Shown: piece by piece, positions 50,953 to 53,870 of the stretch
Numbering within the stretch: the first letter of the stretch is position 1
Layout: every line of letters starts with the position of its first letter
NCBI GenBank assembly: GCA_963755915.1
Contig: CAVWLP010000002.1
Location: 224,001-288,000 of the forward strand
Length of the DNA: 64,000 nucleotides
Reading direction: 5' to 3'
From: an uncultured Phycisphaerales bacterium
GTDB taxonomy: Bacteria > Planctomycetota > Phycisphaerae > Tepidisphaerales > Tepidisphaeraceae
The notes under the pieces: model-generated
Told to the model about the DNA's origin: nothing
The model's database searches: none
The model's input: the letters and a program-made list of their open reading frames with translations, nothing else
Made by a program: the position numbers and the translations under genes

Positions 50953-51885
50953 CTAACTTGCGCTGGCCATGATCTGATCGGTGATCACCTGCACGAGCTG
51001 CTCGATGTCCTGCTCCGAATAATTCTCCGGCGTAAGCGCCGCGACCGCTTTCTCAATCGGCGACTCCGCCGCGCCCTGGACGGGCCCGGTCCCGGTCCCG
51101 CCATCGATGCACATGCGCCCCTTCGTCGCGACCTCGCCGCCCACGCGGGTGACAAAATCGCTCGAGCAACTGAGGCCCTGGAGCTGGCCGTCTTTGAGCC
51201 GGGCGTCGGCCATGCCGAACCTCGCTTTTAAACCCAGCAGCTCTTTCATCTGATCGTTGGAAAGCGTCTGCACAGATCCGACCTGCTTGGCAAGCAGCAG
51301 AATCCGCGAATACGCGTCGACGATTTCCAGCTTGTAATAGGCATCCTCCAGATCGGTACCATAAGAAACCGTGCCGTGATTGCTGAGCAGGATCGTGTTG
51401 GCGTCTTTGACAAACGGTGCAAGCGATTCGCCGAGGCGCGTGTCGCCCGGCGTGACATATCGCGCCGTCGGCACCCGGCCCAGAAAAACCTCTGCCTCAG
51501 GGTGAACGCACGTCGGCAGCTCCATCCCCGCCACCGCGAAGGCCGTCGCGTGCGGCGGATGACTGTGAATGACCGCGCGAATATCGGGCCGATTTTTGTA
51601 AATGAACAAGTGGAGCAAAATCTCACTCGTTCGCCCGCGCTTACCGGAAACCTGTTTTCCTTCCATATCGACCACGCAAAGATCGTCCGGCTTGAGCTGC
51701 CCTTTGCTGATGCCCGTCGGCGTACACAGCACACGATCTTCCGAGAGGCGATAGGAATGGTTGCCTTCGTTGCCGGCGCAAAAACCCTTGTGCCAGATGC
51801 GGCGGCCGATGTCGCACATCTGCTCCTTGAGCTTCCATTCGGGGATTCGTGGGGCACTGCTATTTTTGCTTTTTTGATAAGCCAT
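50953..51885 (-). CDS. class II aldolase (PVM signature enzyme) with C-terminal encapsulation peptide
   Basis: EGN, TPTG.SKG, SE..LH..IY..RPD..AVIHSHPP, NHG; terminal EQDIEQLVQVITDQIM. Confidence 0.92.
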   Translation of the reverse strand: MAYQKSKNSSAPRIPEWKLKEQMCDIGRRIWHKGFCAGNEGNHSYRLSEDRVLCTPTGISKGQLKPDDLCVVDMEGKQVSGKRGRTSEILLHLFIYKNRPDIRAVIHSHPPHATAFAVAGMELPTCVHPEAEVFLGRVPTARYVTPGDTRLGESLAPFVKDANTILLSNHGTVSYGTDLEDAYYKLEIVDAYSRILLLAKQVGSVQTLSNDQMKELLGLKARFGMADARLKDGQLQGLSCSSDFVTRVGGEVATKGRMCIDGGTGTGPVQGAAESPIEKAVAALTPENYSEQDIEQLVQVITDQIMASAS

Positions 51886-51947: not shown

Positions 51948-52063
51948 GGCGCTCTTTTAAATGCGAATGCAATGCAGGGGAGGCGGGAGACAACCCATAT
52001 TTTTCCAAGGTTTTTCTCCCGCCTCCCCCGCACCCCCACCACCCTCTTTCCACTTCCCCTGCT
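51948..52063 (+). repeat. ~130-bp hairpin repeat family, copy B (interrupted by the IS110 element)
   Basis: TTTAAATGCGAATGCAATGCAGG head, 14-bp perfect stem 51977-51990/52015-52028; its tail AACCGTCC resumes at 53595 after the IS. Confidence 0.78.
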
Positions 52064-52075
52064 ATGTTGGTTGTC

Positions 52076-52403
52076 AAGTGTGGGCCGCATTCGCCGCCTT
52101 TATTCTTTTGTCTTTTTAAGCTGTTGCTCGGCCTGTCAGTGTCCGCTCTGCATGGGCTGTTGCCATCATTGCGGCAACGCTCTTCCTGCTATCCGTACCT
52201 GGCGGTTTGCCAGTACACCATGGTCTAATACGTCCGTTGCAGGCGGTTCACGCTGACCCAATCTAACCGCCGAACGCTCAAGGGCGCTCATAGGGGAAAA
52301 CGGGCGCGTTACACCGTGGCTCGTCTCTTTCACTTTTATTCCAAGCTCTTTATCCGTCGTCCATCCAGGCTCCAGAAGTTCGGGGACAACCTTGGCCGGC
52401 TTT
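52076..52403 (-). ncRNA. putative bridge/seek RNA in the IS right non-coding end
   Basis: Internal loop closed by CGUU/AACG carries CGGUUAGAU (same as left junction) and CCUGC (rc of right flank GCAGG) around an inner GGUCA/UGAACC stem; exact RNA ends unknown. Confidence 0.65.
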
Positions 52404-53543
52404 TTACGCTGCCAGTTTCAAGCCCAGATCCTGCGCTTTGACCCGGCCGGTTTTGATCCGCCACAGGTCCACCGCCAGTTGCCGCGCCAAGGCCACCGCG
52501 GCTTTCTTGCGCATGGCTCTGGCTCCGGGGTTCTCGAAGACCTGCTTCCAGCGCTTCAGACGAAAATACTCCGGCTGGAACTTGGGCAGCAGCCACGCCA
52601 GTTCCACCAGCACCGTGCGCAGTCGGCGGTTGCCATGTTTGTCGATCGACAGATTCATCCGGCTCTGGCCTGAGGAGGATTCTCCAGGGCAAAGCCCGGT
52701 GTAGCTGGCGATCTGCCGGCGGTTCTGGAAGCGATTCCAGTCGACGATCTCACGATCCAGCAGCTCATAGCTGAGGTGTCCGATTCCCTTGATCCGGGCC
52801 GATTCGCGGGACTTGGCCTCCGCGCAGAGCTGGCGGGTCAGTTCATCTCGCTTCTGGTCCATCATCTCTACCATCTCCAGGTCGCGGGCAAGCTCCTTGC
52901 GGATCGGTTCGATCAGTTCTGAGCCGTAGAGTTCTTCCAGCTTTTTCAGCAGCGGCTCACACGCCAGCGGCTCCCACCATTTTCCCGGGCGATGGATGCC
53001 GAGGCTGTGCAGCAGGCTTCGTCCACGGGCGATCCAGCGCTGCCGTTCCTTTCGGTAGGTGTTGCGCTCGCGCCCCAGGCGGCGGTGGATCTCCTGGGCC
53101 ACCGTGGGGACACGCACCAGACGCAGCGCCGTCGTGTTGCCGGCGAGATGCCGGTCCAGACGCGAGAGCAGTTCGGTGGCGTCGATCTTGTCGTTGACTC
53201 TCTTGCGGCCGCGGGACAGACGTTCGGGGGCACAGACCAGGCACTCTACGCCCAGGGCGGTGGCTTCGCGGTGCAACGCGAAGCCGTAGGGACCGGCTTC
53301 GTAGACCATCACCACGCGTTTGGCCAGCGTCAGCTGCTTTTTGAGAAACTCGATGAAGACGGCCGGCGAGAGTTTTTGGGCCGGTTGAATCCCCTGATGA
53401 TCGACCATCCGTGCGAAGGTATATTGCTGGCTGTGGGTATCCACGCCGAGTTTGATCACCTCGTGCGACTGATTGGGCTTCGAGACTCTCTCCCCTCGAA
53501 CTTGGGAGGCCTTGCGGCTACCTTTAGAAGAATTGTGTTTCAT
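52404..53543 (-). CDS. IS110 family DEDD transposase/recombinase (~379 aa)
   Basis: LGVDTH (D), YEAGPYG (E), NDKIDA (DD); C-terminal ASYTGLCPGESSSG..KHGNRRLR, KAAVALARQL. Confidence 0.95.
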   Translation of the reverse strand: MKHNSSKGSRKASQVRGERVSKPNQSHEVIKLGVDTHSQQYTFARMVDHQGIQPAQKLSPAVFIEFLKKQLTLAKRVVMVYEAGPYGFALHREATALGVECLVCAPERLSRGRKRVNDKIDATELLSRLDRHLAGNTTALRLVRVPTVAQEIHRRLGRERNTYRKERQRWIARGRSLLHSLGIHRPGKWWEPLACEPLLKKLEELYGSELIEPIRKELARDLEMVEMMDQKRDELTRQLCAEAKSRESARIKGIGHLSYELLDREIVDWNRFQNRRQIASYTGLCPGESSSGQSRMNLSIDKHGNRRLRTVLVELAWLLPKFQPEYFRLKRWKQVFENPGARAMRKKAAVALARQLAVDLWRIKTGRVKAQDLGLKLAA

Positions 53544-53709
53544 GGTTGTCGGGTTTAGTCGACGGTGGCTAGCCCGACAACCAACATGCCATCTAACCGT
53601 CCAAGGCAAAAGACAGAAGCCGGAGACGGTGGCGCGAAACTCAGGGGCATCTTTTTCGCGTGATTGGGGGCACACGCCTGCGCGGGGCGTTGCCGAGTCT
53701 TTTCTTAGG

Positions 53710-53840
53710 GGGACGGTTGAGAGGAAAAGGACGGGGAGTGGGGTGGGTGCGGGAGGGGCGAGGGGGAAACCCTTGGGGCGCCCTTGCGACTCCTCTCGCG
53801 TGGTTCCCCCTTGCCTCTCCTGCATTGCTTTTAGCATTTT
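53710..53840 (-). repeat. ~130-bp hairpin repeat family, copy A (inverted relative to copy B)
   Basis: rc AAAATGCTAAAAGCAATGCAGGAGAGGCAAGGGGGAACC...GTTTCCCCCTCGCCCCTCCCGCACCCACCCCACTCCCC...CAACCGTCC. Confidence 0.8.
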
Positions 53841-53870
53841 GAATTTTGTCGCGATGAATTGCATGGCCGA

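Follow-up and report, generated by a model that had tools for sequence, protein, structure and literature searches.

The 64,000-nucleotide stretch of DNA analyzed here (the window) covers positions 224,001 to 288,000 of contig CAVWLP010000002.1 in assembly GCA_963755915.1, from an uncultured Phycisphaerales bacterium of the Tepidisphaeraceae, and carries on its minus strand an insertion sequence of 1534 bp (window 52061-53594). We consider it very probable that this is an active IS1111-type element of the IS110 family, with a recombinase guided by an RNA from the non-coding region downstream of its gene. A first-pass annotation, made from the letters of the window, had already called an intact IS110/IS1111-family element and a guide in its long 3' non-coding end that matches its own insertion site. 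The first call is borne out by the match to the family model NF033542, the protein fold, the element ends and six copies in the host genome, and the second by covariation between guides and insertion-site flanks among relatives.

In the mechanism that we propose, a DEDD/serine recombinase would bind and be guided by an RNA that comes from the 343 nt of non-coding sequence following the gene. This RNA would have two internal loops, and in the first a stem, here referred to as Stem A, would enclose a 5' segment, a hairpin and a 3' segment. The 5' segment, UUUUCCCCU, would pair with the top strand of the core and right flank (AG-GGGAAAA), the 3' segment, CGGUUAG, would pair with the bottom strand of the left flank and core, and both guides would specify GGA-CGGTT-AG-GGGAA in the tail of a repetitive extragenic palindromic (REP)-like repeat. 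Insertion would proceed without duplication and leave one AG at each junction. The second loop, reading 5' to 3' CCAU, a hairpin and AUAGCAG, would most likely hold the joined ends of the element itself.

Insertion in the tail of a REP-like repeat

A whole-element DNA search of the host genome (6.63 Mb) recovered six full-length copies and no other matches, and by this search the RNA gene had no orphan copy in the genome. Positions 52062-53602 are identical across the six copies, the single difference, at 53603, being outside the element. The insertion position is the same in all six, each in the tail of a different copy of the REP-like repeat. Empty repeat copies read ...TTCCC-CT-AACCGTCC... 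on the plus strand, and the unoccupied target in the transposase sense is GGACGGTT-AG-GGGAA. The 12-mer CGGTTAGGGGAA (transposase sense) has 12 unoccupied occurrences in the genome where 0.79 would be expected, all 12 of them in a REP-like repeat tail. Six identical copies together with 12 free sites argue for recent activity.

The core dinucleotide, CT on the plus strand and AG in the transposase sense, occurs once in empty sites and once per junction in occupied sites (52059-52060 in the right flank and 53593-53594 at the left end), thus without target duplication. Bases 52061-52063 (AGC, transposase sense) belong to the element because the 12 empty sites lack them, and with the core copies placed as above the element therefore extends over 52061-53594, a length that counts one copy of the core, at the left end. 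Two RNA-library contigs of empty sites depart from the window sequence exactly after 52060. The left target flank (53595-53602, minus strand), GGACGGTT, is the same in the six copies and the 12 empty sites (..GGA-CGGTT-AG..), and the right target flank (52054-52058, minus strand) is GGGAA, followed by G or AA depending on the copy. The first-pass annotation had set the ends at 52062-53603 and removed the DNA between the CT copies at 52062-52063 and 53593-53594, which misassigned AGC to the target. The target restored in that way, GGACGGTT-AG-CAGGGG, does not exist in the host: its plus-strand 16-mer, CCCCTG-CT-AACCGTCC, has no match at up to one mismatch in the 6.63-Mb genome. The circle junction then proposed, CAT-AG-ATGG, likewise lacks the three bases AGC.

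With these boundaries the ends take the form known from the IS1111 group, for which Siddiquee et al. 2024 (PMC11187229) give subterminal inverted repeats of 11-13 bp with a 7-bp left and a 3-bp right extension. The left repeat, ATGTTGGTTGTC (transposase sense; 53576-53587, minus strand), and the right repeat, GACAACCAACAT (transposase sense; 52064-52075, minus strand), form a perfect 12-bp pair. Outside them lie a 7-bp left terminal extension, AGATGGC (53588-53594, minus strand), whose first two bases are the core, and a 3-bp right terminal extension, AGC (52061-52063, minus strand), which stands next to the repeat in all relatives for which a right end is available; the ends first proposed would give extensions of 7 and 0 bp. 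The longer non-coding part lies downstream of the transposase gene (343 nt, compared with 51 nt upstream), as in the IS1111 group, and insertion is site-specific and without target duplication, as is also the case there.

The host repeat next to the right junction has its hairpin at 51971-52034 (strand unspecified), and its tail carries the target. This family has at least two dozen genomic copies; its parts are a hairpin rich in G+C, a tail rich in C, the target CT-AACCGTCC and a further, semi-conserved stretch (AAGGC.AAAG). Another copy, inverted and degenerate, lies about 150 bp beyond the element (window 53746-53826). The REP-like hairpins draw spurious matches to Rfam miRNA models, far below gathering scores.

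The recombinase

The transposase/recombinase gene (52404-53543, minus strand) encodes 379 amino acids. Its product scores 163.8 bits with the NCBIfam model NF033542, 'IS110 family RNA-guided transposase' (cut-off 140), matches Pfam PF02371 at 8e-16, and has an N-terminal RuvC-like domain of the DEDD type, a coiled coil and, at the C terminus, a Tnp domain with Ser-Gly, as recombinases of the IS110 family do. An alignment of 24 relatives shows no variation at D35, E82, D118, D121, S291 and G292, which are, by analogy, candidate catalytic residues. The stretch GLCPGESSSG fits the motif GL-P----S(t)G given for IS1111 transposases by Siddiquee et al. 2024 (PMC11187229). An AlphaFold model (mean pLDDT 74.8) had recombinases of IS621 and ISCro4 as its nine best PDB matches in Foldseek, and similarity to IS621 at the sequence level is detectable in the C-terminal domain only (E = 2.6e-4).

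The protein begins with a basic N-terminal extension of about 30 residues (window 53453-53543; pLDDT 39), in which M1, K11, A12, R16 and S21 are conserved across the clade. The reading frame is also open further upstream, through the left end and into the flank, giving 486 amino acids from an ATG at 53864 (52404-53864, minus strand). The conserved start is the ATG at 53543, and the longer frame is an artefact that arises by read-through at the insertion site.

Relatives and covariation of the target guides

Among 8000 scored proteins in the protein database, 2355 were relatives at E<=1e-20; the best 120 clusters share 59-100% identity with the element's transposase and lie nearly all on metagenome contigs of 1-3 kb. 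Within the class, one of 400 other genomes held a relative at E<=1e-30 (G283, an unpublished genome that serves as the basis of this count only). The 'poorly sampled lineage' of the first-pass annotation thus describes the class genomes well and the metagenomes, with more than 100 protein clusters at 59-98% identity, poorly. Scanning a genome collection with the single protein gave two loci, and a metagenome scan gave 72 loci and was the source of the usable set of relatives. The locus from G283 (L010, 45% identity) is without the repeats of the clade and was left out of further analysis. Two loci (L025 and L050) were dropped before alignment as false anchors inside coding sequence, and the exact duplicates L035, L046, L047, L048 and L059 were excluded from the resulting 30-row alignment and kept in the per-locus flank counts. 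A plasmid search (72,556 records) gave best matches of at most 37% identity and no close named relative; alignments with plasmid-borne IS110-family proteins show 23-37% identity and cover 17-96% of the protein. Among the papers listed by our literature search, none dealt with IS110-family elements in Planctomycetota or Phycisphaerae.

The ends are strongly conserved among these relatives. Of the 42 related loci with an identity of 59% or more, 36 have the 12-bp repeat when up to 2 mismatches are allowed. All left junctions with at least 7 bases (n=32) read AGATGGC, except that of L015 (AGATCGC). At the right ends AGC is followed by AG in every case, with one AA instead, while the flanks vary. 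One relative in a Tepidisphaeraceae metagenome-assembled genome (L007:1975-3159) has a frame that stops 42 codons after the conserved start, with tblastn coverage of residues 2-379, and is probably a frameshifted copy. In another (L026:330-375) the left flank consists of 16 bases from the left end of the element itself and then AG, which suggests a nested insertion or a footprint beside a full copy.

An alignment of the 30 distinct non-coding regions shows two short variable windows amid conserved surroundings. The first lies directly 3' of CGCGCCCG; it reads UUUUCCCCU in our element (52292-52300, minus strand), complementary to the top strand of the core and right flank, AG+GGGAA(AA), and changes with the flank in relatives, being CCGACCCC where a relative's flank is AG-GGGTCGG. 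The second variable window ends AG-AU, reads CGGUUAG here (52263-52269, minus strand), identical to the top strand of the left flank and core, and also changes with the flank; the AU that follows it (52261-52262) equals the first two bases of the left end. Together these positions make up the 9-mer CGGTTAGAT, which has just two matches in the window (0.22 expected), on the minus strand at 52261-52269 and at the left junction, 53591-53599. The first-pass annotation had noted this identity and had placed the left guide correctly, and its left guide does covary with the left flank.

In 23 of 28 loci the right guide pairs past the core with 5 or more contiguous bases of the flank, and in 19 of 29 the left guide matches at least 3 bases. 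With one locus taken per guide class, cognate runs of the right guide average 5.5 nt compared with 2.24 nt for non-cognate pairs (16 classes), and those of the left guide 3.22 nt compared with 0.57 nt (18 classes); none of 100,000 permutations was as high in either test. The earlier expectation that target specificity can be read from the sequence, with guide positions that covary with targets across relatives, held. The right guide lies 5' of the left guide and both overlap at the core AG. The seekRNAs of IS1111 elements have the same order and overlap, with the top-strand-complementary segment 5' of the bottom-strand one, and the IS110 group has the reverse order (PMC11187229). A sister clade (~39% identity) has the same layout of the target loop, with right-guide runs of 9, 7 and 3 nt.

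An alternative is that the protein, or the shape of the REP-like repeat, selects the target and that the RNA matches are incidental. It would fit the observation that the six copies and the 12 empty exact sites all belong to one repeat family with an adjacent hairpin, the shortness of the left guide (3-5 nt beyond the core), and a 2026 preprint in which the REP-targeting ISPpu10 is reported to need both sequence and structure (10.64898/2026.03.19.712850). We regard it as very improbable: the guides covary with flanks over 16 and 18 independent guide classes, and those flanks are unrelated to the REP-like repeat. In addition, soil DNA run X5 contains a copy of ~99% identity whose insertion site has only 52054-52060 of the right flank in common with the window, and these seven bases are about the length of the right guide.

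Structure of the predicted RNA

RNAalifold, applied to the 30 sequences, places both target guides inside one internal loop closed by Stem A, with its 5' strand at 52301-52315 and its 3' strand at 52245-52260 (both minus strand). Between the two guides stands hairpin 1 (52271-52290, minus strand; 6 pairs, 3 with compensatory changes). In Stem A and hairpin 1 taken together, 98.1% of the cells are paired and 6 pairs have changed on both sides; none of 500 shuffles scored as high. The conserved stretch covers about 161 nt (52155-52315), and Table 1 of PMC13604230 lists published long seekRNAs of 148-172 nt. Rfam gave no match inside 52061-52403 at E<=1.

The annotation from which we started had drawn a different loop, IS621-like in its order, in which a left guide, CGGUUAGAU, stood on the 5' side and a right guide, CCUGC, on the 3' side of one internal loop that had a closing stem CGUU/AACG and a hairpin GGUCA/UGAACC. 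Both motifs are indeed at the positions given for them, CCUGC is complementary to the right junction GC-AG-G, and the hairpin can be drawn in the sequence of the element. This arrangement is nevertheless almost certainly wrong. It implies the restored target that is absent from the genome at up to one mismatch, whereas the 12 empty sites lack the three bases in question and in all relatives, regardless of their flanks, the right repeat is followed by AGC. CCUGC (52239-52243, minus strand) is kept in 28 of 30 relatives while the flanks vary, and is for this reason not a target guide; the annotation thus had its position right and its role wrong, the real right-target guide being UUUUCCCCU. The proposed stem and hairpin have 76.1% of cells paired, and 393 of 500 shuffles are as good; one of the pairs (64-105) forms in 4 of the 30 sequences. 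Finally, the order with the left guide 5' and the right guide 3', that of IS621 and the IS110 group, contradicts the published IS1111 order (PMC11187229), which is the one that the element has. A compensatory change in L008 that seemed to support the GGUCA/UGAACC hairpin was set aside, as the 30-sequence alignment puts the changes in Stem A, whose 3' strand overlaps this hairpin.

A putative donor-binding loop

Downstream of the target loop in the predicted RNA, three conserved elements can be recognized: CCAU (52220-52223, minus strand), invariant in 30 of 30 sequences and a putative right-donor guide, since it can pair with the ATGG in the left end; hairpin 2 (52194-52217, minus strand), with 9 pairs of which 5 are changed on both sides; and AUAGCAG+G (52185-52192, minus strand), a putative left-donor guide that equals the right end, the core and the first flank base, with AUAGCAG itself at 52186-52192 equal to the right end and core. 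Next comes hairpin 3 (52155-52181, minus strand; 8 pairs), the GUUGCC/GGCAAC hairpin of the first-pass annotation, in which pair 182-223 is AU in 13 and GC in 11 sequences. The annotation had built its own second loop from this hairpin, GGAUAG and a CCAU; the first two are present, and its CCAU lies downstream of hairpin 3 in an unconserved stretch.

We read the second loop as donor-binding, with moderate confidence, because GGAUAGCAG is retained in the sister clade and the left ends of the two clades differ in a compensatory manner. GGAUAGCAG, which contains this AUAGCAG, is found in 30 of 30 sequences and in 4 of 4 sister-clade loci, which have the same right end. The left end of the sister clade is AGATGAC and the equivalent place in its RNA carries GUCAUCU (3 of 4 loci) or GUCAUGU (1 of 4), so that AGATGAC/GUCAUCU there and AGATGGC/CCAU here represent one compensatory difference between the clades. 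Within the clade the element ends are invariant, and covariation therefore cannot probe the donor loop there.

CCUGC bears on how this loop should be understood. Its complement is found both at the right junction, made up of the last two element bases, the core and a single base of the flank, and within the RNA as GCAGG (52185-52189), so that its role is either an RNA helix with GCAGG or a reading of the right junction. If CCUGC/GCAGG were a plain RNA helix, the second loop might bind no donor DNA and the protein alone might recognize the ends through the 12-bp repeats. RNAalifold does pair CCUGC (columns 99-103) with GCAGG (171-175), CCAU is no longer than 4 nt, the clade shows hardly any variation in its 12-bp repeats, and according to Siddiquee et al. 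(PMC11187229) end recognition may differ between the two groups. This is a possibility that we take seriously while thinking it unlikely. Sister-clade loci keep GGAUAGCAG and the same right end without a CCUGC partner, and the two clades show the compensatory difference at the left end. In L026 the partner column has changed without compensation (pair 99-175), and the base after AUAGCAG follows the flank (A) and not the helix partner.

Expression and evidence against the proposed mechanism

Contigs from three metatranscriptome runs cover parts of the element, one of them spanning 52203-52426. A circular intermediate might be transcribed from its own junction: TTGACA, inside the right repeat (52072-52077, minus strand) and conserved with it, would in a circular form come to lie 17 nt upstream of the left-end CATGTT, and the two could form a possible junction promoter, by analogy with ISEc11, for which such a promoter has been shown (PMC11187229).

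Several observations weigh against an active, RNA-guided IS1111-type element. From the metatranscriptome contigs neither the strand nor the ends nor the level of a transcript can be told, and DNA may be carried along in libraries of this type. In the contigs of 4 runs there was neither a circle junction nor any other joint, and a promoter scan found no sigma-70-like promoter inside the element. Single-sequence folding of the non-coding region was undistinctive (z = -0.86 and -1.28), and the minimum-energy single-sequence structure differs from the comparative one. The Pfam N-terminal model PF01548 did not match the transposase. The donor loop is argued from invariant motifs and the one compensatory difference between clades, with a CCAU of only 4 nt. 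Pairing is also poor at some loci, for the right guide in 5 of 28 (L024, L030, L034, L059 and L060) and for the left guide in 10 of 29, where 2 bases or fewer match (none in L043). Such one-sided poor matches agree with the 'half-match' insertions that a preprint reports for IS621 (10.64898/2026.08.31.748434), or may be assembly artefacts.

Other features of the host genome

Downstream of the repeat that holds the element is a neighboring gene (window 50953-51700, minus strand) whose translation has an HSHPPHATAFA motif, which suggests a class II aldolase/adducin-type protein. Another multi-copy sequence occurs at about 22 places on C1-C3 of the host genome (for example C2:887571 and C3:389051), with at least 148 bases identical in every copy listed, and is probably a different insertion sequence.

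Implications and comparison with known elements

The mechanism is the known one, and the element adds a member to the IS1111-type RNA-guided group: its recombinase is intact, shares no more than 37% identity with plasmid-borne relatives and has a defined target of 12-14 bp. The known working of IS1111/IS110 elements is unchanged by this finding. The case illustrates that the target of an IS1111-type element can be read from sequence alone, given ends fixed by empty sites and the guide order of the family. Some 30 natural relatives with a common donor module and different target guides also provide material for guide-length rules and engineering.

A more tentative reading, which we doubt on present evidence and offer for its consequences, joins these observations: the donor module would be frozen, the target loop would have been rewritten at least 16 times, and the strand-identical guides would read the recombinant junction. 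The donor module, comprising the 12-bp repeats, the AGATGGC and AGC ends and the second loop, is constant in the soil clade. The last bases of the left-target guide, AG+AU, are those with which the left end starts, and the left-donor guide closes with AG+G, where G is the first flank base and is replaced by A in the one relative with a flank starting with A; both strand-identical guides extend 1-2 nt past the core into recombinant-junction sequence. We found no description of such an overrun for IS1111 elements in the literature examined, which comprised parts of the papers cited here. If the reading is true, the clade would be a natural reprogramming series for IS1111-type recombinases and would suggest, as working rules, about 5-9 nt for the right side and no more than 3-5 nt for the left. 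The overrun would then correspond, on the bottom strand, to the handshake guides of IS621, or would serve to read the integrated junctions during excision.

Compared with characterized systems, every IS1111-group feature tested (ends, layout, insertion and guide order) is present in the element. It has in common with ISEc11, ISPa11 and ISKpn4/ISPst6, as these are presented in PMC11187229, the 12-bp repeats, the 7/3-bp extensions and the long downstream non-coding region, as well as the lack of target duplication, the order and overlap of the guides and the GL-P----SG motif. It differs from them in its target and in a protein that is distant, as judged by plasmid records (at most 37% identity); its seekRNA is here predicted from sequence. 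Its transposase, at 379 amino acids, is also longer than the 330-350 amino acids quoted for IS1111 transposases (PMC11187229) and has the N-terminal extension of about 30 amino acids.

IS621 (PMC11208160, PMC11208158) is similar in its DEDD and serine recombinase fold, which was the top structural match, in two internal loops with one guide per DNA strand, in a common core dinucleotide and in a REP-type target. In IS621 the RNA is in the left end and the left-target guide is 5' of the right-target guide; the element differs in both, with its RNA in the right end and the guide order within the loop reversed, and furthermore has long subterminal repeats and a core that reads AG in the transposase sense. 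ISPpu9 and ISPpu10 of Pseudomonas putida (PMC12288879; 10.64898/2026.03.19.712850) likewise have several identical copies at one position of a REP, in an unrelated host and repeat, and differ from the present element, for which the whole-element search gave no orphan RNA genes.

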